64,000 nt of DNA from Aulosira sp. ZfuVER01 (lineage in GTDB: Bacteria; Cyanobacteriota; Cyanobacteriia; Cyanobacteriales; Nostocaceae), in the NCBI GenBank assembly GCA_034530615.2, contig JAVRCV020000049.1, positions 32,001 to 96,000 of the forward strand, given 5' to 3'. This document shows positions 15,959 to 50,919 of the stretch, one piece after another (position 1 is the first letter of the stretch; each line of letters begins with the position of its first letter). Position numbers and translations under genes: made by a program. The notes under the pieces are model-generated. The model was not told the origin of the DNA. It saw only the letters and a program-made list of their open reading frames with translations, and did no database searches.

Positions 15959-16172
15959 GCCTTAGCTAAGGGGTACTGTGAGCTTTTCTGAAAATCTTTA
16001 AATTCCAGTGTTACTTTAGCAGGATTTCTGGGAACTATATAGCAATCTTATTTGATTTGTGAACTTACTCGTGGAGGAAGGCAATAGGCAATAGATATTT
16101 TTGCTCTCACCTTGCTTCACAGCCATTTTAATTGTTTCATATACACTTTCGACCAATCCCCAAGGGATATTT

Positions 16173-17636
16173 ATGGATAACCTAGACAAGCTTCTACATG
16201 AACTGACAAAACTTGTTGAGAGTCTGAGGCTGACTGTTGGTGATTCTCATACAATTAAGCAAGAAATCATCCGGCTAAATTTTGTTCAGGAACAACTCCG
16301 CAATCTCCAAGGTGCGATCGCTCAAGAAATAGCTGTTGCAAAAATTAATAATCCAGCAGTTAGTGTACTTTCTTTGGGTACAGAAAGCACTATATTTCCT
16401 TCTCACAGCCGTTTAGTAGATCCATTGCTGACAACTGGAGAAAGATTTATCGCTCACAAATTTGGTAATGAACCAACCAAAGTATCTTTAAATGAATTAG
16501 AATCTCAAATTTCCCGTTGGCTGGAATGGGGTGAACTGCTTCAGACAATAGCTGAAGATATTGTAAGCAATTCTCAATTTATTAATCAACTGAATTCTAA
16601 TATCAACTATCCTAGTTTACCAAGTAAGTTACAAGAGCTTGAAGGAAAACTCAAGATTGACTTAGTTTATAATAAAGCGAAAGTTTTACAGCAGCAAATT
16701 CAGCAAATAGGCAAATACCAAGAGGAATTGTTGCAAGTACAGGAAAAGTCTAGCAAAGTATTTGATAGGATTAAAAATACCCAAAATATTCTATTAATAT
16801 TACTGAATTTATCAGCTTTTTGTGGCAGTTCCGGCTTGGAATTAGAATGGTTTGATGATGAATATGGATTCATAATATCTAGTGGTGACAAATGTCAAGC
16901 CTTGGCAGATATTATCTATGATTGCGAATTATTTCAAGAAGAAATTGATGCCTTAGTTGGCGATACTAACAATTTGTTAGAACAGGCAGAAATAGCTATG
17001 AGCAATCTTCCTCAGAGTAAAAATCTGGAACAAATAACAAAATTATTATCACAAAATATAGTACATTCGGCTTTATTTATTAGCTCAAGTTTATTAGTAT
17101 TAGGTTTTGGTACTTGCATAGTTAAAGATAAAATTGTCACTATGCAGCAAACTCAAAATATCAAACAAGAAAAAATTGCCCTAGCTAACTTGAAATCTGC
17201 TAAAAGTCTGGGTATGGAAGCTGCTGTTATCGTTCAAAAAACACCATTGCCACTAAAAGATTGGCAGCAAGCCGAGAGCAAATGGCAAAAAGCAGTAAGC
17301 TTGCTAGAGGCTATTCCTAAAGATACATCTATTTCTCCACAAACCAATAAACAACTAGTTAAGTATCGTGCCTACCATACTGCTATTAGTCAAAGAGTTG
17401 CTTTGGAAAAGAAAGCAGTATCAAACTTAGAAGCTGCCGAAAAGTTAGCATTAGAGGCTGAGTTTATTATTAAAAATGCGCCTGAAAAATCGGCAATTTT
17501 ACAGCAAGCCAAAGATAAATTACAAGAAGCAATTAATTTATTAGAACCTATTTCTGAAAGTACTTTCGTCTCTAAACAAGTGCAAGAAAAACTTGCGAGT
17601 TATAAAAATAAATATGAGGCGATTAAGACAAAATAA
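16173..17636 (+). CDS. Hypothetical membrane protein: coiled-coil N-terminus, one TM, helical-repeat C-terminus
   Basis: ATG at 16173. Hydrophobic segment ALFISSSLLVLGFGTCIV, then two repeats of A..L..EA...W/LQ.A..LLE.I. Confidence 0.7.
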   Translation: MDNLDKLLHELTKLVESLRLTVGDSHTIKQEIIRLNFVQEQLRNLQGAIAQEIAVAKINNPAVSVLSLGTESTIFPSHSRLVDPLLTTGERFIAHKFGNEPTKVSLNELESQISRWLEWGELLQTIAEDIVSNSQFINQLNSNINYPSLPSKLQELEGKLKIDLVYNKAKVLQQQIQQIGKYQEELLQVQEKSSKVFDRIKNTQNILLILLNLSAFCGSSGLELEWFDDEYGFIISSGDKCQALADIIYDCELFQEEIDALVGDTNNLLEQAEIAMSNLPQSKNLEQITKLLSQNIVHSALFISSSLLVLGFGTCIVKDKIVTMQQTQNIKQEKIALANLKSAKSLGMEAAVIVQKTPLPLKDWQQAESKWQKAVSLLEAIPKDTSISPQTNKQLVKYRAYHTAISQRVALEKKAVSNLEAAEKLALEAEFIIKNAPEKSAILQQAKDKLQEAINLLEPISESTFVSKQVQEKLASYKNKYEAIKTK

Positions 17637-17708
17637 AAAATTGCTCGGGGAGATAAATAATTTCTCTTGATTAGGCCTCTTGCATAAGTCGAGGTTTTTG
17701 ATATTGGA

Positions 17709-17758
17709 TCGCAGATAAACACCGATAAATAAATATCAGTGTTTATCTGTGGTTTTTT
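17709..17758. terminator. Hairpin between convergent genes (probable terminator)
   Basis: cgcagataaacaccgat-loop-atcagtgtttatctgtg, followed by a T run. Confidence 0.5.
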
Positions 17759-17776
17759 ATTCTTAAAATATACTTT

Positions 17777-18045
17777 ATATTCTCGTTTGTTGCGATCTAA
17801 GTCAGCTTGTGCAGATGCGATCGCTTGCTGCATTAAATTCGACTCAGCCGCAATTTGAGTTTGTAGTGCATTCAGTTGAGCAGCGATTTGTCTAAGTTGT
17901 AACTTATTCTGCTGGATATTATCTGCAATTTGTTTTTTTTGGTTCATCTCACCAAAATCTTTTTAACAGCACCTTCTCCGGCTGACTGCACTAACCGTAT
18001 ATCTCCGTCAGGATGGATTGTAGCGGGTGCTTTCACAGTGACATC
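17777..18045 (-). pseudogene. Decayed HlyD-family (membrane fusion) secretion adaptor fragment
   Basis: The minus strand 18045-17947 reads DVTVKAPATIHPDGDIRLVQSAGEGAVKKILVR then a stop, resembling the HlyD beta/lipoyl N-terminal motif. A different frame continues as the coiled coil QKKQIADNIQQNKLQLRQIAAQLNALQTQIAAE...DRNKREY. No N-terminal TM and no C-terminal half. Confidence 0.72.
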
Positions 18046-18063: not shown

Positions 18064-18101
18064 AAAAAAACCTGGAGAGGTAATTTAAAGCACTCTCCAG
18101 G
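18064..18101 (-). terminator. Rho-independent terminator downstream of the two peptide genes
   Basis: 9-bp stem cctggagag/ctctccagg (18071-18101) followed on the minus strand by seven T. Confidence 0.75.
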
Positions 18102-18177: not shown

Positions 18178-18306
18178 TCAGTCCAACGCGGGCATCCCAT
18201 AACCACCAGAAACGTTAGACATTTCCTTTTCATCCAGGCGTACAACTGGTAAAGTTCCTGAGTTAGGATTTTTGGTGTCTTTTTTAGCTTGTTTTTTGAA
18301 CAACAT
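18178..18306 (-). CDS. Double-glycine leader precursor peptide A, 42 aa: MLFKKQAKKDTKNPNSGTLPVVRLDEKEMSNVSGG|YGMPALD
   Basis: Hand-translated and below the ORF-track cutoff. AAGGA RBS-like motif upstream, L-x-E-x-E-M-x-x-V-x-GG leader end, TGA TAA double stop, paralogue 237 bp away, adjacent C39 transporter. Confidence 0.82.
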   Translation of the reverse strand: MLFKKQAKKDTKNPNSGTLPVVRLDEKEMSNVSGGYGMPALD

Positions 18307-18420
18307 AAGTCATCCTTGGGTTTTTTGTGAGTGATTTTAAGCTTTTAATACTGTCAATTAAGACTTATATCCGACAAGAGTTTACAAGCTAACACTAGAG
18401 GTCAAAAATTTCCTTTTCAT

Positions 18421-18543
18421 TCAAAGGTAAGCAGGAGGTCCACCACAAACGTTAGACATTTCCTTTTCATTCAAGCGCACAATTGGTAAAGATCCTAAGT
18501 TATGATTTTTGGTATCCTTTTTAGCTTGTTTTTTGAACAACAT
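18421..18543 (-). CDS. Double-glycine leader precursor peptide B, 40 aa: MLFKKQAKKDTKNHNLGSLPIVRLNEKEMSNVCGG|PPAYL
   Basis: Hand-translated. GAGGA RBS-like motif upstream. The 35-aa leader differs from peptide A at 6 positions, with additional synonymous changes; the core is unrelated. Confidence 0.82.
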   Translation of the reverse strand: MLFKKQAKKDTKNHNLGSLPIVRLNEKEMSNVCGGPPAYL

Positions 18544-18634
18544 AAGTAATCCTCGGATTCTGTTTTGCTAATTTTGAACTTTTAATGTTGTCAATGAAGG
18601 CTTGTAGCCTAATTTACAATTTGAATTTAATTCA

Positions 18635-18660
18635 GCAGTGTTTGCTATAAACAACACTGC
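18635..18660. promoter_or_regulatory. Inverted repeat in the divergent promoter region between the peptide genes and the exporter
   Basis: gcagtgtt-N10-aacactgc. Function inferred only from position. Confidence 0.35.
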
Positions 18661-18815
18661 GTTACTTAACTTCATAACTCAAAAAATATTTAAGCGTCAC
18701 TACCTTGAAGAAAACTTTATTCCCAGATTATAATTTAAGTATTTATACGTAATTACTAGTTAATATATACATAGTTATGATTTAGCAGATGTATCCTTCC
18801 AGCTAATTCTGCAAA

Positions 18816-20981
18816 ATGGTCAGATTTGCTAAATATCCATGTGTTTTGCAACTTGCCGAATCCGACTGTGGAGCAGCATCCTTAGCCACTGTTGCAAAAT
18901 TCTACGGTCGTACCCTAACGATGAGTTACATCCGGGAAGTTGTAGGGACTGGGCAACAGGGAACTACTTTATTAGGGCTGAGGAGAGGAGCCGAGGCACT
19001 GGGTTTCAACGCCCAAGGTGTGAAAGCTACACCAGAAATTCTTGAGCAAATCGATATTATGCCTCTACCTGCGATTATTCACTGGTTGGGCTATCACTGG
19101 GTGGTTCTATATGGCAAACGAGGCAACAAGTATGTCATTGCCGACCCAGATCCAGCTATTGGTGTGCGTTATTTATCTCGTGAAGAACTAACCAAAGGCT
19201 GGCAAAACTACATCATGCTGTTACTAGAGGTAGATCAAGTAAGGTTTGAACAACAACAAGACGAGCAAGTTCATGGTTTAGGACACTTTTTGCGCCGTAT
19301 TTTACCTTATAGGCTAATTCTGGCTGAAGCACTGTTGCTTAACTTTGTTCTCGGTCTAATTGCCCTGACTTCTCCCTTCTTCATTCAAATCTTGACTGAT
19401 GATGTGCTAGTTAGGCAAGATACTCGGCTACTCAATGCTGTAGTAATTGCTGTTGCGGTGATGAGCCTTATCAGTAGCAGTCTCAGACTGGTGCAGTCTA
19501 ACTTAATAGCACATTTTGCTCAACGACTGGAGTTAGGTTTAGTTTTGGAATTTGTGCGCCAAATCTTGACACTGCCCCTGACTTATTATGAAACCCATCG
19601 TAGTGGAGAAATTATCAGTCGGCTGTATGATATTCAACGCATTAGAAATGTGATTTCCCAGCTATTTGTTAGTTTACCCAGTGAATTTTTTATTGCTGTC
19701 GCTTCTTTGGGATTACTACTATTTTATAGTTGGAAGTTAATGTTAGCTGTTACCTTCATTATTATTTTAATGATGATATCAACTATTGCAATTTTCCCAC
19801 ATTTGCGGCAAAAAACTAAACATATATTAGCTCAAGAAGGTGAAAAACAAGCAATTTTAGTTGAAACCTTTAAAGGGGCAATTACTCTCAAAACGACCAC
19901 AGCAGCGCCACAACTTTGGGAGGAACTTCAAATTCGCTCTAGCAGTGTAGCAAACTTAACATTTCGTGCTATCCAATTAGCAATTACAAACCAAACCTTC
20001 TCTGATACTACTTCGGTTCTTGGTAGCGTCGGCATACTTTGGTTTGGTAGCCAATTAGTGTTTGCTAAAGAACTTAGTATTGGTCAATTAGTAGCTTCCT
20101 ATAGTTTGACTCAAAATGTGATTCGCTTAATGACTGATTTAGTAGCGATTATTAATCAAATTATTTGGATACGAACAGCTGCTGAACGTCTGAATGAAGT
20201 GATTGATGCTAATCCTGAAGTCCAAAAAGAAGATTATCAAAAACCCTTTGTCAAGATAACTGCTGATGCTGATATAGTTTGCTCAAAAATTAATTTTAAC
20301 TATCCCGGTCAACTTGACTTATTAGAAGACTTTTCCCTGACTATTCCAGGTGGTCGTGTAGTTGCTTTAATTGGTGAATCTGGCTGTGGCAAAAGTACGC
20401 TTTCTAAACTCATAGCCGGACTTTATAACTTGGAATCTGGTAATATCCGTTTTGGTATTTATAACCGCCAAGACCTCTCTCTTGATTGTCTGCGCCAGCA
20501 AGTGATTTTAATTCCCCAAGAACCTCACTTTTGGAGTCGTTCAATTATTGCTAACTTTCGCTTGGGTGCGCCCCACGTGACTTTTGAAGAAATTGTCACA
20601 GCTTGTCAGCTAACAAAAGCAGATGAATTTATTAGTAAACTACCAGACAAATATCAAACTGTTTTGGGAGAATTTGGTGCAAGTATTTCTGGAGGACAGA
20701 GACAAAGATTGGCAATAGCAAGAGCAATTGTTACCGATCCATCAATCCTAATTTTAGATGAATCAACTGCTAATCTCGATCCTGTAACTGAGACTTATGT
20801 TTTGGATAAGCTGTTATTTTATCGCCAAAGCAAGACCACAATTCTAATCAGTCACCGTCCCAGAGTCATCAATCGCGCTGATTGGATTGTGCTATTAGAA
20901 CAGGGTAAAGTAAAAATGCAAGGTACTCCAGAACAGTTGCGCTCAAAATCAGGCGCTCATTTGGATTTTTTAACTCCTTAG
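18816..20981 (+). CDS. Peptidase C39-containing ABC transporter (PCAT, double-glycine peptide exporter)
   Basis: QLAESDCGAASL (catalytic Cys), HW.GYHWVV (His), IADP (Asp). ABC membrane domain, GESGCGKS, ISGGQRQR, LILDESTANLD, ISHR. Confidence 0.95.
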   Translation: MVRFAKYPCVLQLAESDCGAASLATVAKFYGRTLTMSYIREVVGTGQQGTTLLGLRRGAEALGFNAQGVKATPEILEQIDIMPLPAIIHWLGYHWVVLYGKRGNKYVIADPDPAIGVRYLSREELTKGWQNYIMLLLEVDQVRFEQQQDEQVHGLGHFLRRILPYRLILAEALLLNFVLGLIALTSPFFIQILTDDVLVRQDTRLLNAVVIAVAVMSLISSSLRLVQSNLIAHFAQRLELGLVLEFVRQILTLPLTYYETHRSGEIISRLYDIQRIRNVISQLFVSLPSEFFIAVASLGLLLFYSWKLMLAVTFIIILMMISTIAIFPHLRQKTKHILAQEGEKQAILVETFKGAITLKTTTAAPQLWEELQIRSSSVANLTFRAIQLAITNQTFSDTTSVLGSVGILWFGSQLVFAKELSIGQLVASYSLTQNVIRLMTDLVAIINQIIWIRTAAERLNEVIDANPEVQKEDYQKPFVKITADADIVCSKINFNYPGQLDLLEDFSLTIPGGRVVALIGESGCGKSTLSKLIAGLYNLESGNIRFGIYNRQDLSLDCLRQQVILIPQEPHFWSRSIIANFRLGAPHVTFEEIVTACQLTKADEFISKLPDKYQTVLGEFGASISGGQRQRLAIARAIVTDPSILILDESTANLDPVTETYVLDKLLFYRQSKTTILISHRPRVINRADWIVLLEQGKVKMQGTPEQLRSKSGAHLDFLTP

Positions 20982-28222: not shown

Positions 28223-29722
28223 ATGATAAGACTTACTTACAATAATAGGCATTTACTACAATCTCCAATAAAAAAAATGAAAGACTTACTAAAACAATTT
28301 GTTCTCACAATTCAATCGGTTATTCAGTCTTCGTCTATAAATTTAGAAGTATCTGAAACTATCTACTGTCGTGATAAAATCCTAGAATTCAATTATATTG
28401 ATGATACTCCAACTTGGCAATCACAAAATCAATATATTACTAAAAAAAATTATATTCCTTCAGCAGAAGTTATCAATCTTATTAAAGATTCTACTTATTA
28501 TAAATTAATTTTAGAAGAGACAATAAAGGATGATAGTAAAATAGATAGTATATCATTAGATAGCTTGATAGACTTTTTTACAAATTTCATTTTAAATAAT
28601 AGTGACTTTCATGAAAATCAAATAGATTTATTTATAGAGCAATTTTTAAGTGATATTAATCAAGAACCATTTAAGTGTAGTGCAAATATTGAGCTTTCTG
28701 GAATAATTATAAAGGCTGCACCGATTGAATTCAGTATTAATGGGTTCAAAATTATATTAAGGGAGATTAGAATTCAAGATTTAGAGGAAGACCATATTAT
28801 TTATCCTTACTTAAATCTATCACCCGTAAAAAGTAGTCCTACCTGTGTACCTTCAGCTATTCTAAATATAGAATCATATATACTTGAAAAGTGGAAGCTT
28901 CAACTTGAAATTGAGAAAATAATAGCAATATTAAGGCTTTTTAAAGTATGTAGTGCTAGATATATTTCTTACAAACTAGATTCCGAAGCTATTCTATGGC
29001 AACGCAGAATCGGGGGAACAATTACTAGCTTAAAATATTTAAATGTTGTTCCATATAAGAAGATTAAGATAACCGAGCAAGATGTAGCAAATCTCATCTA
29101 TTTTTATAGGAAAATAGTAAATTATATACCAGAATGCCTATATGAATCTAATATCGAAAATAAAGGAATGGTTCATTTAGCTATTGCTTACAGACATTAT
29201 TGTGAAGCCATACTTAATAATACTACATTAGAGGAAAAGATTACAAATGCAGTAATTGGTTTAGAAGCTCTAATTTTATCTGAAAATCAAGAAATAGCAT
29301 TTCGGTTTTGTATACGTGGAGCAAAGATACTCAGCTTATTTAATTATTCTGCTATTGAAGTCAAAAAAAAGCTGAAAGCTGCTTATAACATCAGAAGTAC
29401 TTTTGTTCATGGTGATGATATTGAGTTGGAGAAAGAGGTAAGAAAACTAGACCAAAATTATCAATCTCAAGATTTCTTGATAGAAATTCTAGATTATCTT
29501 CGGGTATTGATAATTATAATCATTTTCTTATCAAAACAAAATGAATTTGTTAACTCAAAGAGAGGAGTAAATAATTTTGAGAAGAGAAAGTTTCTAGATA
29601 TAGTAGATGATTCTTTAATTGATAAACAACAAGAAAATAAGCTAAATAATATTTTAGAAGAGGTAAAATATTTAATAGATTTATTAATGACTTTCAACCC
29701 AGAAAAAAACTTAAGAACATAG
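28223..29722 (+). CDS. HEPN-domain protein (ApeA-like), putative defence RNase
   Basis: C-terminal IGLEAL...FRF..R...AYNIRSTFVHG carries the Rx4H HEPN motif. Strongly AT-rich. The start may be the later ATG (MKDLLKQ). Confidence 0.65.
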   Translation: MIRLTYNNRHLLQSPIKKMKDLLKQFVLTIQSVIQSSSINLEVSETIYCRDKILEFNYIDDTPTWQSQNQYITKKNYIPSAEVINLIKDSTYYKLILEETIKDDSKIDSISLDSLIDFFTNFILNNSDFHENQIDLFIEQFLSDINQEPFKCSANIELSGIIIKAAPIEFSINGFKIILREIRIQDLEEDHIIYPYLNLSPVKSSPTCVPSAILNIESYILEKWKLQLEIEKIIAILRLFKVCSARYISYKLDSEAILWQRRIGGTITSLKYLNVVPYKKIKITEQDVANLIYFYRKIVNYIPECLYESNIENKGMVHLAIAYRHYCEAILNNTTLEEKITNAVIGLEALILSENQEIAFRFCIRGAKILSLFNYSAIEVKKKLKAAYNIRSTFVHGDDIELEKEVRKLDQNYQSQDFLIEILDYLRVLIIIIIFLSKQNEFVNSKRGVNNFEKRKFLDIVDDSLIDKQQENKLNNILEEVKYLIDLLMTFNPEKNLRT

Positions 29723-47112: not shown

Positions 47113-50100
47113 GTGACTTCTCACGCAGATGAAATTCAAAGATTGATCGCAGACATTGACAACCTACTTGCCAATAATGGCAAGCGTCTGTCTAAGCTGT
47201 TGTCTGGTCAGGCGCAGGAACCAAGAGAGGTTTTGGAGCGAACTCGCGACTTTCTCAGTAGACTCCAAGAAAGTGAATTATTGTCCAAGGATGGTCAAAA
47301 CAAACCTTCAGAACCCAAACCACTGTCACCTTTATTAGCAAAATTTGTCGATCAAAATCATCAGCAGTCGTTAACCCAAAACAAGCAAGCCAACGAAGAA
47401 CAGAGTACAGCGACGCTGCTGCAAAAATTAAATAGTGAAGTCTCAGTTTTGCTCCAGCCGTTGCAAGGAGAATTAGCAGGATTATTGCAAGAGCGAGCCA
47501 ATCTGGTGCAAGAAATTCGCCAACTAGAGCAAAGGCGATCGCAAAATTATTCCCTGAGCCAGCAGTTGGCACACCAGGAACAGATCATTAACGACTTTTT
47601 ACAGGTACTTACCAATCGCTTGCTGCCAACTTTAACCTCGCAGTTAACCCAGAAGTTTGCAAATGTACCGATTTCTGCCACAACAAGTAATAACGCCAAT
47701 TCAGACGCCACACTAAGCAGCAATCCAGATGGAGTAGAGCAGTTAACTAGGTTAGGTAGGGAGTTCGATCAACGCCTACTGTCACTGGATGGAACTGTCA
47801 ATGTTGTCTTTGAAGCACTACAGCGCAACATTCATACTTATCAAGAATCCCTATCACAAGCGATCGCCAGAATGCACTCGCAAGGAGTGCAAGGCGAACA
47901 GGTAATGGCCAGCTTTGTGAATAACTTGACGCAGTATTTACAGCAATTTCCTGGGTATCAGCCATCTTTATCGACAATTAAGACAGAAACCATTAATTTA
48001 CAAGCTTTACAGCCAGCATATCCTCAACCGGAGTTAGAAACTCAGCGATCGCCAATACAACCACAAACAGATGCTGCAAACACAGAAGATTTGGATGCAG
48101 TGCTGTTGGAATTTGTCACAGATGCGCCACAATCTTCTCAGACAACTACGGCTGCAACTCCAACTGCATTCCAGCCAGAGAGTTCCCAAGCAGATGAAGT
48201 AGACCAACTTTATGCCAGTTTGTTTGGGACTGAAGATGTTACTCCAAAAGTCGTTGCTAATGAAGTAGTGCCACAAGAAACTGTTACGTTAGCAGATGTA
48301 GATATCACCGATAGCACACCTGTAGCCTCAACCAATCAAGTGCAATCTGTGGATGCTGCTGTGGAAACCGCCGCGAGTATCAAAGAAGCAATTCCTCCTC
48401 AACTAGAAGCAATTCCAGATTCCCCTGCGCAATCAACAGATTCATCACCGGAATGGGAAGATTTGTTTTTTGAGGAGGTTACAGATACAACTAGCTTGCC
48501 AGTAGAAGCAGTCACAGCAACAGAGAGTCAAGCTAGTGTTGAGACAATTACTGCTTTAACAGACTTAGTAGTTGATGTAGCTGCTCAACAGCAAGTCATT
48601 CCAGCTCCATCTCCTGCAAAAGAAGTCATAAAAACTACAACAGTCACACCTGCTGCCCAAAAACCGGAAGTAGTAATTCTCCATGAAGAGCAAGATAAAT
48701 CTTTAGATAGCTATATTGCCGCCTCACCACAGGAAAATTTACTTTCCCCAGAAGTAACCGCTAATATGCCGGATATTTCCTTAGATGATGAGCAGTTACA
48801 GTTATTGGATCAAGATTTGGCTGACTTTGATGGGTTGCTGAATTCTGCTAGTGAAGAATCGACTTTTCCGGAATTAACAGAAAATACTTCCCCTGAGGCT
48901 TTTAATAATACAGAAATGCCACAGCTTGCTTCTGGTAATTTCCCTCAACCAGAAGTTGAGTTAGACTTTAGCCCAATAATTGAAAAAAAAACTGCGCTTT
49001 CTACTGCGCAGGGCGTAAATTATCCAGAAATTTCATCTCAAGATATTCTCAAGTCGCGCTGGTATCTAGGAATTGATTTAGGTACAACAGGGATTTCTGC
49101 GACATTATTAAACAGTTCTACTTGTGTTGTCTATCCTATCTACTGGTCAGCAGAAACCCAAGCAGGAGCAGCTTCTTTCCAGCAATCTTTTCGTTTACCA
49201 GCAGAAGTTTATTTACCTACGGCTTCTGTACCTCAAGGTGAGACTGAAAATACAGAAAACTTGCCTAGCAATGCTGCACCATCCAAAAACACTCCCTACT
49301 CAGCACAATTAAAACCCTATTTACAAGTAGCTATTCCCTACAAAAGTGCTAGACAAAAATGGGAACCTGTACTGCAATTTAATGAGTTTTCTGCGGGGCC
49401 GTTAATTTGGATTGTGCGATCGCTTTCTAAACTACTATTAACTTTAAAATCCGATCGCCAAAGTACTACTCAAGGTTTAACTGCTGCTGCTGTTGGTTTA
49501 AATGAAGCCAGTTTCCGTACCATTATCAATAACCTGGCTGGTGCAATTTGCACTTGTCCATCTAGTTGTTCGGAACAATATCGCTTTAATGTGCGCGAAG
49601 CCTTACTGACAAGCAAATTAGTCCAACATCCCCAGCAAGTATTTTTCATTGAAGAAGCGATCGCTAGTCTTTTAAGTGTACTGAATGCTGCCAACGGTGA
49701 GACAGTACAAATCAGCAGTACCCAAGGTTTGCATCCCGTACAAAACGAGCAACCGCTTTTAGGAAACACTCTGGCGCTGAATATTGGGGCTACCGCTACA
49801 GAAATGACCTTGGTTGATTTGCCAGAAAATTTATCGGAATTTACACATCATGATTTCATGCTCCACAACTTTGCCTATGGTGGCAAGGGTATTGAGCAAG
49901 ATATTATCTGCCAACTGCTCCTACCGCCAAAATCTCGGCGATCGCGGGCAGAAATTTCAGCTGATAGCCAAGTTAGCAGTCAGCCTGGGCTATGGCAATC
50001 GACTATTCCAGGTTTAGACCAGATGCAGTGGCAAAGTTTGGGTTTAGAAGAATTAGAACTTCCACGAGTCGGAGAACCTGATATTAGCGCTCGTGTTCGC

Positions 50101-50919
50101 CTCCAGCAGCGTCTAGAAAGCTCGCTTCTAGGACAAGCAGTACTTGATGCCGCACTGGCTCTGAAGTTGATTTTACAACACCAAGAATCTTTCACTTTGG
50201 ATTTAGCCGACCAGCGATGGATCTTGGAACGGCGAGATTTGGAGAGCCAAGTATTAGTTCCGTTTGTGCGCCGCCTCAACCGCGAACTTAACAAGTTGCT
50301 GGTAGCTCGTGGTATACCCACAGAAGCAATTAATCAGGCTGTCTTGACTGGTGGAGTTGCTTCCATCGCCACAATCAACCGTTGGCTGAAGCAAAAACTC
50401 CCCAACGCCAAAATTATTCACGATTCATATTTGGGTGAAAATGGCGCTCCTAGCTGTAGCCGAGTTGCCTATGGTTTGGCGATGTTACCCTTACATCCCC
50501 AGGTTTTAGACATAGCCAGACAACAATACACCGATTATTTCTTGTTTACAGAATTACTGCGGCTGTTGCCAGACCGACCCCTATCTTTTAGTGAAGTTAT
50601 TCATTTATTTGAGGGACGGGGCGTTAATACCCGCACTTGTCAGCAACGCCTCTTGGCTTTCTTGGAAGGTGAGTTACCTGCGGGTTTAATCCCTAACAGT
50701 CCTGATTCCTCTTGGCTCACCCAAAGTTCCCAAGATAACCCAGACTATCATGCGATCGCCTCAGCCCCACTTTTTGAAAAACAAGGTAATCTCACCTATC
50801 GTCCTAATTCTCAACAACTTTTGTCTCTGCGTCGCTATCTAGAAGCAATCAAGGCTAGTACTCGGCAATCTTTAGAAGAACCATACACACTTAATTTTTT
50901 CTTAGAGGTTGCTCATTAG
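47113..50919 (+). CDS. Large hypothetical protein: coiled-coil N-terminus, acidic linker, Hsp70/actin-like ATPase fold C-terminus
   Basis: YLGIDLGTTG (phosphate-1), IEEAIA, LNIGATAT, VLTGGVASI, VAYGLA. Confidence 0.75.
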   Translation: MTSHADEIQRLIADIDNLLANNGKRLSKLLSGQAQEPREVLERTRDFLSRLQESELLSKDGQNKPSEPKPLSPLLAKFVDQNHQQSLTQNKQANEEQSTATLLQKLNSEVSVLLQPLQGELAGLLQERANLVQEIRQLEQRRSQNYSLSQQLAHQEQIINDFLQVLTNRLLPTLTSQLTQKFANVPISATTSNNANSDATLSSNPDGVEQLTRLGREFDQRLLSLDGTVNVVFEALQRNIHTYQESLSQAIARMHSQGVQGEQVMASFVNNLTQYLQQFPGYQPSLSTIKTETINLQALQPAYPQPELETQRSPIQPQTDAANTEDLDAVLLEFVTDAPQSSQTTTAATPTAFQPESSQADEVDQLYASLFGTEDVTPKVVANEVVPQETVTLADVDITDSTPVASTNQVQSVDAAVETAASIKEAIPPQLEAIPDSPAQSTDSSPEWEDLFFEEVTDTTSLPVEAVTATESQASVETITALTDLVVDVAAQQQVIPAPSPAKEVIKTTTVTPAAQKPEVVILHEEQDKSLDSYIAASPQENLLSPEVTANMPDISLDDEQLQLLDQDLADFDGLLNSASEESTFPELTENTSPEAFNNTEMPQLASGNFPQPEVELDFSPIIEKKTALSTAQGVNYPEISSQDILKSRWYLGIDLGTTGISATLLNSSTCVVYPIYWSAETQAGAASFQQSFRLPAEVYLPTASVPQGETENTENLPSNAAPSKNTPYSAQLKPYLQVAIPYKSARQKWEPVLQFNEFSAGPLIWIVRSLSKLLLTLKSDRQSTTQGLTAAAVGLNEASFRTIINNLAGAICTCPSSCSEQYRFNVREALLTSKLVQHPQQVFFIEEAIASLLSVLNAANGETVQISSTQGLHPVQNEQPLLGNTLALNIGATATEMTLVDLPENLSEFTHHDFMLHNFAYGGKGIEQDIICQLLLPPKSRRSRAEISADSQVSSQPGLWQSTIPGLDQMQWQSLGLEELELPRVGEPDISARVRLQQRLESSLLGQAVLDAALALKLILQHQESFTLDLADQRWILERRDLESQVLVPFVRRLNRELNKLLVARGIPTEAINQAVLTGGVASIATINRWLKQKLPNAKIIHDSYLGENGAPSCSRVAYGLAMLPLHPQVLDIARQQYTDYFLFTELLRLLPDRPLSFSEVIHLFEGRGVNTRTCQQRLLAFLEGELPAGLIPNSPDSSWLTQSSQDNPDYHAIASAPLFEKQGNLTYRPNSQQLLSLRRYLEAIKASTRQSLEEPYTLNFFLEVAH

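Follow-up and report, generated by a model that had tools for sequence, protein, structure and literature searches.

Closest to the system described here are secreted peptides with a double-glycine (GG) leader that are cut and exported by a peptidase-containing ATP-binding cassette transporter (PCAT). The system itself was met in the cyanobacterium Aulosira sp. ZfuVER01, in a stretch of 64,000 nucleotides (contig JAVRCV020000049.1, positions 32,001 to 96,000; in the following the window), where two very small genes encoding GG precursors with the cores PPAYL and YGMPALD stand head-to-head with a PCAT gene. We suggest, at a probability of about 0.5, that such genes represent a mobile three-part cassette (precursors, PCAT and HlyD) making very short, probably unmodified secreted signal peptides. 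Mature pheromones of the ComC type comprise about 17–21 amino acids and act through a cognate histidine kinase and response regulator. RRNPP peptides (Phr, PapR, SHP, arbitrium) are unmodified signals of 5–8 residues and thus similar in size to the cores presented here, but they do not use the GG/PCAT route and are encoded beside their receptor, so that export and receptor linkage differ. CDI and Rhs systems possess variable C-terminal modules with downstream orphan copies, as do our arrays, yet their modules are toxins with immunity genes. With the PatS pentapeptide the first-pass annotation of this DNA, made from its letters alone, had already drawn a comparison. The likeness in size and the absence of the motif RGSGR hold (no core of this type occurs among 93 distinct database cores or 61 cores from loci), but the comparison itself is weak because a whole HlyD in 15 of 21 loci points to export outside the cell and not within the filament. 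In contrast with PatS and HetC, the family extends to Microcoleus and Aliterella, which form no heterocysts, and most of the heterocystous genomes that were searched lack it.

ComC and other streptococcal pheromones share with our family a GG leader with hydrophobic residues at positions -4, -7, -12 and -15, cleavage and export by a PCAT (ComAB) and an unmodified product (PMC10885120), but here the cores have 4–8 residues, the receptor is unlinked, arrays contain up to eight different cores and the host is Gram-negative. Group III of the cyanobacterial bacteriocin clusters defined by Wang, Fewer and Sivonen in 2011 (PMC3140520) likewise comprises a short PCAT, HlyD and tandem GG precursors with conserved leader and diverse cores; our cassette, which has a short PCAT and HlyD and neither LanM nor a second ABC transporter, corresponds to this group, HlyD being a pseudogene in the window. 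The group III precursors were named NHLP, N11P, HetP, DUF37 or other, the first two mostly with negative charge, whereas here a 35-residue leader of net charge 0 to +4 precedes a core of 4–8 residues; leader motifs were not found in the supplements of that paper, but the part of their table that was covered holds no sequences, so that an unnoticed entry is possible. RaxX/RaxSTAB (10.1101/442517) resembles the cassette in its Gram-negative PCAT with adaptor and unlinked outer-membrane channel, which exports a GG-cleaved peptide, and its receptor resides in another organism; RaxX, however, is a single precursor of 60 residues, with the cut behind Gly-39 and a linked enzyme for its sulfation, in contrast with the far shorter cores and many alleles without enzyme here. 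EbfG1-4 of Synechococcus elongatus are cyanobacterial GG precursors as well, served by the C39 transporter PteB and with a non-antibiotic role in biofilm formation, but their mature products are proteins of 6–7 kDa (PMC4997328) compared with cores of about 0.5–0.9 kDa. HetC is a Nostoc PCAT without known substrate, and evidence for functions of Gram-negative PCATs beyond toxin export was called lacking in 2024 (PMC10986499).

The leader family and its dedicated transporter

A profile of seven rows retrieved 43 representatives among 1.84 billion proteins and a profile of 21 rows 81 proteins. There were 110 distinct identifiers, of which 106 could be parsed; P0035 and P0041 (>150 aa) were removed as spurious, and P0099 and P0101, not parsed by the pattern, appear to be short-core members. 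Core lengths are 4 (2 homologues), 5 (39), 6 (30), 7 (14), 8 (10), 9 (2), 10 (1) and 14–48 residues (8), with 93 different sequences. The first-pass annotation had set a search for leader homologues as a test, and such homologues with variable short cores were indeed found adjoining PCAT and HlyD genes. It had also proposed that much longer cores in homologues would mark the two genes as truncated pseudogenes; as 98 of the 106 homologues carry cores of 4–10 residues, we reject this truncated-bacteriocin reading. The same lengths fall short of class II bacteriocins and microcins, which need tens of residues on membranes. Full genes from 28 DNA loci have cores of 4–8 residues in 94 of 95 cases, where random stop codons would give about 22%, and cores of 0–3 residues never occur (about 24% expected), these rows not being independent because many of the loci are related Microcoleus-type arrays. 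A chance origin of the two open reading frames (ORFs) is excluded by a family of more than 100 members.

The leader has a fixed length of 35 residues and is basic. In 96 genes Gly-2, Val/Ile-4, Met-7 and Ile/Val/Leu-15 are invariably present and Leu-12 in 94 (Leu or Met in all 96), which matches the -4/-7/-12 pattern of PCAT recognition (PMC10885120). When 65 members were compared with NCBIfam (E<=0.1), generic GG-leader models were matched, TIGR01847 by 42 of them; there were weak matches to a class I lanthipeptide leader (4), to rSAM-target (7) and to ATP-grasp-target models (2) and none to NHLP, Nif11 or CTB models. The two window peptides have NCBIfam matches below the cut-off (such as TIGR03949) or none, and no Pfam match, ComC included. 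A PDB sequence search with the precursor profile returned nothing, and in the ESM Atlas nameless and uninformative clusters scored 0.89–0.91, the ComC cluster following at rank 30 with 0.85. The initial impression that the leader is not of the Nif11, NHLP, microviridin or cyanobactin type is in line with the lack of a dedicated Pfam or NCBIfam model. Full-text searches, which included core and leader strings and left subscription literature mostly uncovered, found no paper describing the family. The export route is already known; the cargo of 4–8 residues, the dedicated PCAT clade and the orphan-core arrays appear to be undescribed.

In the 389 genomes of the window's taxonomic family a PCAT search, scoring two candidates per genome, gave 11 matches at 75–100% identity and then a gap to 68% or less. 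All 11 belong to precursor-bearing genomes; in the twelfth carrier (G390) the locus contains a piece of the PCAT gene. In a quick IQ-TREE run without bootstrap or clade test, 18 of these transporters group on a single branch (SH-aLRT 99, stem 0.25), separate from the 19 nearest others and six paralogues of the own genome. Among four close copies dN/dS is 0.14–0.17. For the C39 domain and precursor 2 the modelled complex has a score of 0.69, compared with 0.39 for the best control. Of the solved pairs 116 of 157 attain this mark, and of the mismatched ones 2 of 215; 81% or more of the contacts are common to the runs, and partner pLDDT is 59 or higher. In the model, precursor residues 18–37 (29–37 among them) contact C39 residues including 15–19 and 92–95. 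Because like complexes have already been solved, this score supports a likeness of the leader–C39 pair to them rather than binding. Leader motif, cognate PCAT with Cys/His/Asp triad, co-occurrence and complex model assign the precursors to the GG-type PCAT substrates, with predicted cleavage after the GG.

Two groups at the margin of the family were seen as well. P0103–P0113 form a subfamily with a different leader start and aromatic-rich cores of 6–14 residues, some with Cys, that may be modified. L052:7875-8114 and L053:7748-7945 each encode a solitary precursor whose leader opens in a similarly basic manner and whose long core starts with NVVWGG; a PCAT is absent within about 8 kb.

Composition, distribution and core turnover of the cassette

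The cassette consists of 1–8 precursors (1–4 in Nostocaceae, up to eight in Microcoleus-type loci), PCAT and HlyD. Besides the whole copies, HlyD is cut by the contig end in two of the 21 loci, broken in three (window, G006, G745) and absent in one; PCAT is broken or a remnant in three. From 19 loci, 54 of 140 ORFs of at least 150 aa were scanned, chosen near the cassette with PCATs, most HlyDs and duplicates excluded, and they gave no family of modifying enzymes, regulators or receptors that different neighbourhoods have in common. Single sites contribute an IQCH-like ATP-grasp protein (G244), a GNAT plus M14 peptidase (G279/G254 site), an AMP-binding enzyme (G221), TPR-CHAT and TPR proteins and kinases (G221, G347). 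The latter are the only kinases met, so that no linked cognate sensor kinase or regulator of the ComC type recurs among the ORFs scanned. The cassette listings contain no recurring extra ORF that could be an immunity gene, though very small genes could escape notice. In the window itself, 47 of 58 ORFs of at least 100 aa were compared with Pfam (ten of the other 11 overlap or sit inside longer genes) and LanM, YcaO, radical SAM, ATP-grasp and P450 were not matched, as the first-pass annotation had claimed; neither scan points to a linked tailoring enzyme common to the cassettes.

Strong precursor matches (E<=1e-6) occur in 12 of the 389 genomes. Clear members also exist in the Microcoleus family (2 of 121 genomes), in the Aliterella family (2 of 28) and, with one genome, in a further family; in a class-wide sample of 401 genomes the own genome was the sole match. 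Carriers belong to Nostoc (e.g., Nostoc sp. TCL26-01 and N. flagelliforme FACHB-838), Stigonema, Rhizonema, Microcoleus (Microcoleus spp.) and Aliterella and include a Chroococcidiopsidaceae metagenome-assembled genome. We take them to be largely soil, crust or lichen organisms. Viral contigs contained no relative, and PLSDB plasmids gave no precursor match and only PCAT matches of 56–63%, outside the clade. In four congeners the flanks of the window's cassette are contiguous apart from 1–5 kb of other DNA between them, and the cassette of G006, 97% identical, sits among other genes. The cassette therefore is mobile and occupies a variable slot.

Not counted were 28 weaker matches (E 2e-5 to 0.04) in the 389 genomes, six of which were inspected and are long-core precursors, the order-level weak matches G683 and G568, the former with a long repeated core, and the false metagenome matches L089, L091, L093, L094 (4/15) and L092, presumably YbaB-like. 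The GG precursor of G683 (L073:1492-1719) has a thrice-repeated Gly/Val/Leu core, and the gene beside it is probably a radical SAM/SPASM gene.

Judged by sequence, the leaders are conserved and the cores turn over by duplication and swapping. Flank-matched pairs give pN/pS of 0.82 for cores and 0.29 for leaders; the pairs were picked by their 3' flank, many are non-orthologous, and 7 of 53 of unequal length were omitted. The selection for new specificities that had been postulated at first finds support in this difference but not in the core value itself, which is not above 1. Since core pS (0.32) exceeds leader pS (0.19), core swapping is suggested and not point change alone. Orphan modules, i.e. 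a leader end plus old core without full leader, follow PSQYL in G244 and GRSWA in G279 and are repeated after RxGxPGG-type cores in Microcoleus arrays. The stop codon of PPAYL and PSQYL derives from such an out-of-frame duplicated leader end; in G244 this relic is a still recognisable copy of the end of the AWFRVGP gene, and in G399 it is deleted, with PSQYL and stop kept. PPAYL recurs with three leader variants, in G006 and in further records with slightly different leaders, and the related core PSQYL occurs in G244 and G399. YGMPALD was found in the window genome only. Its mate in the same 90% cluster, P0118, has a close variant of the leader and a core starting with AWFRVGP, to which the YGMPALD core DNA aligns with gaps and a frameshift (an equal or higher score in 182 of 20000 shuffles; joint best of 94 cores). 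YGMPALD is thus probably a strain-specific, frameshifted allele of AWFRVGP and a recent derivative, representing either a new specificity or decay.

Weighing of the explanations

In the explanation which we prefer the precursors would be transcribed and translated, leader residues Val/Ile-15, Leu-12, Met-7 and Val-4 would dock on the C39 domain with a cut after Gly-Gly, and the core of 4–8 residues would reach the cell exterior via PCAT, HlyD and an unlinked TolC. For intact loci we regard this cleavage and export as very probable from the leader and transporter sequences. The free peptide might then act on a receptor or uptake system not encoded by the cassette, and the repertoire would be renewed as precursors are duplicated in tandem, leader ends are partially copied and cores are swapped. 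That the free 4–8-mers are diffusible signals has about even odds; signalling is suggested because the cores have too few residues to form pores, come without genes for immunity or tailoring and differ between strains. Since no receptor travels with the cassette and HlyD implies release to the outside, a target in neighbouring strains or partner organisms is likelier than a private quorum loop or PatS-like intrafilament patterning. More tentatively, and with less than even odds, the cassette can be considered as a mobile, receptor-less peptide code of terrestrial cyanobacteria, in which a dedicated PCAT–HlyD pair exports strain-specific sets of up to eight unmodified 4–8-residue peptides that, renewed by leader-end duplication and orphan-core swapping, signal identity to neighbours in soil crusts and symbioses or manipulate them. 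If so, it would be a kind of ribosomal peptide communication, with unusually short PCAT products, of which no description was found for cyanobacteria. Few extracellular signals of filamentous cyanobacteria are known for bundling, hormogonia, biofilm or partner recruitment. The family would extend the size range of PCAT cargo, shows a route for the birth of new cores and yields about 90 cheaply synthesised candidate peptides with predicted masses, carrier strains and a single transporter target.

Transcription in a relative is weakly hinted at by two low-depth contigs of a soil metatranscriptome (90–95% and <90% alike) on the precursor genes (18202-18496 and 18432-18585), DNA carry-over being possible. 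One of them has a loose end that, read on the reverse strand, contains a frame closing with the PPAYL motif as well, a hint at a longer allele. In run X1 there were no RNA contigs on the PCAT, which bears no information on its expression.

Several points weigh against the signalling explanation. In peptide-signal systems described so far the signal usually remains linked to its receptor, unlike in the cassette, and what speaks for the signalling step is the size and variability of the cores and the absence of enzymes. The RNA contigs come from another strain. A core pN/pS of 0.82 is equally expected from weak constraint, and the pairs are not independent. The complex score may reflect solved C39–leader structures, and decay is common across the loci, as the counts for HlyD and PCAT demonstrate. 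Eight homologues carry the long cores listed above, and Cys, absent from the 61 distinct cores of the loci, occurs in 5 of 85 distinct short database cores. Finally, Trp in 43 of these 85, often second or third from the end, offers a possible substrate to an unlinked enzyme, and the first 17 leader residues are conserved yet lie outside the C39 contacts. Both features would fit ribosomally synthesised peptides modified by an enzyme encoded elsewhere (Trp/Tyr prenylation, methylation, cross-linking), which the basic N-terminal half of the leader would recruit. A weakly related leader end in G154 also lies ahead of two phosphotransferase-like genes, a pair resembling the class V lanthipeptide-like cluster that the window genome has on contig C52. 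Such modification in trans is nevertheless unlikely: over a dozen neighbourhoods have no enzyme in common, PPAYL, GLVLSE and GQINAI have no common modifiable residue, and a patchy mobile cassette could not rely on an unlinked enzyme. Slightly less probable still is a cocktail of non-signal effectors, be they weak antimicrobials, inhibitors of enzymes, metal binders or molecules jamming the peptide signals of other microbes. The cassette is patchy, mobile, multi-copy and fast-changing like conflict systems, and many cores are rich in Arg or Trp; TSHHG and SSHHG start with X-X-His and GHKWS with GHK, N-termini that we take to bind Cu or Ni. These His motifs represent, however, a minority of cores, no immunity gene is found, and 4–8 residues are too short to span a membrane. 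Some members are annotated as bacteriocin, probably because the generic leader-end model TIGR01847 matches them.

That the entire family consists of truncated relics of longer bacteriocins or lanthipeptides, their cores being junk or leftover spacers, is very improbable. The long-core homologues would fit it, and two-step lanthipeptide leaders do have a hexapeptide after the GG (PMC10885120), but cores of 0–3 residues are missing from the full genes, the same cores occur across genera (AWFRVGP and PSQYL in G244 and G399, GRSWA in G034 and G279), and a conserved PCAT clade co-occurs with no LanM nearby. More serious, though still rather unlikely, is that the family works and only the window strain's copy is dying, with nothing leaving the cell for want of HlyD and YGMPALD a neutral frameshift. 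The window copy shows partial decay: of hlyD two fragments are left, the gene is also lost in G006, and YGMPALD is confined to the cluster whose other member has the AWFRVGP-starting core, to which its DNA aligns as described. On the other hand the PCAT is intact, with a dN/dS of 0.167 between the window genome and G006, both HlyD-less (a value that includes the time before the loss), and PPAYL is unchanged in G006 and combined with three leader variants. An intact HlyD paralogue, 72% identical, is encoded elsewhere in the same genome (contig C52), and HetC is an example of a PCAT without adjacent membrane fusion protein (PMC10986499). We propose for the window strain that export must use the periplasm or the paralogous HlyD, with PPAYL as conserved product and YGMPALD as recent derivative. 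The same genome contains two TolC-family genes and three oligopeptide-binding proteins.

The Aulosira locus and further observations

The features of the locus are given in the table. Both precursor ORFs are as first annotated, their leaders sharing 29 of 35 residues and 94 of 105 nucleotides, with five synonymous and six non-synonymous codon changes. Also borne out were the motifs resembling ribosome-binding sites (RBS; purine runs GAGGA/AAGGA 7–11 nt upstream of each ATG), the terminator and the intact catalytic triad of the PCAT (Cys18, His94, Asp110), whose Pfam domains are Peptidase_C39, ABC_membrane and ABC_tran and whose Walker A, signature, Walker B and H-loop motifs are intact. The hairpin is overlooked by a simple terminator scan because its loop has 13 nt. 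The hlyD pseudogene (17774-18045) beyond the terminator and the leader-end relic at the PPAYL stop had not been picked up before.

Features of the precursor locus in the window of Aulosira sp. ZfuVER01
Feature	Position	Strand	Basis
Precursor 1 (35-aa basic double-glycine leader + core PPAYL, 40 aa)	18421..18543	-	ORF reading, leader comparison, core repeated in relatives
Precursor 2 (35-aa leader + core YGMPALD, 42 aa; probably derived allele of AWFRVGP gene)	18178..18306	-	leader cluster, core DNA likeness
Decayed second leader end + core, orphan module overlapping PPAYL stop codon	18373..18424	-	17-nt repeat of leader end
Divergent intergenic region	18544..18815	.	RBS 18550-18554 and one NtcA-like GTA-N8-TAC box 18604-18617
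Short-type PCAT (C39 + ABC membrane + ATPase, 721 aa) of the precursor-specific PCAT clade	18816..20981	+	Pfam domains, motifs, tree
Intrinsic terminator between precursors and hlyD	18064..18101	-	11-bp stem, -17.2 kcal/mol, 7 T
hlyD pseudogene fragment 1	17947..18045	-	tblastn; residues 50-82 of 444-aa homologue, 82% identical
hlyD pseudogene fragment 2, start of ORF 17600-17947	17774..17944	-	tblastn; residues 104-159, 73% identical

The NtcA-like box, of which chance would give 0.09, is retained in G006, while G244 and G399 have imperfect versions; its meaning is doubtful. A sigma-70 promoter scan was no better than chance level, and no conserved promoter motif was found across the upstream regions of the loci. 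The divergent promoter region also contains an imperfect inverted repeat with arms of 8–9 bp (18629-18656), weaker in G006. Next to the variable-content slot by pgeF, positions 16101-17636 encode a protein of 511 aa without confident Pfam or NCBIfam match that is conserved in congeners. Two further window ORFs, 47113-50919 (1268 aa) and 28223-29722 (499 aa), have no Pfam (E<=1e-5) or NCBIfam (E<=1e-3) match.

Precursors and PCATs of other kinds were recorded as well. L049:7765-8111 (contig C12 of G244) contains two short-core precursors, one startless, by a PCAT remnant of 37 aa; they could be served in trans by the intact cassette of G244 elsewhere. At G000:C38:62068-65436 (L145) nine GG precursors lie near a PCAT and an HlyD-like gene, and the two that were tested belong to the CTB family bacteriocins (NF038167). 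A PCAT at G000:C16:43518-50344 (L144) stands beside a protein with filamentous-haemagglutinin domain and two proteins of 176 and 184 aa with GG-type leaders, which end in a Peptidase_S74 (endosialidase chaperone) domain and would be an unusual PCAT cargo. G000:C52:234610-243100 (L143) is class V lanthipeptide-like as a cluster: its PCAT is accompanied by two genes for HlyD, by a phosphotransferase resembling LxmK (below cut-off), by a protein with HopA1 domain and by a precursor of 59 aa with a Ser/Lys-repeat core flanked by Cys.

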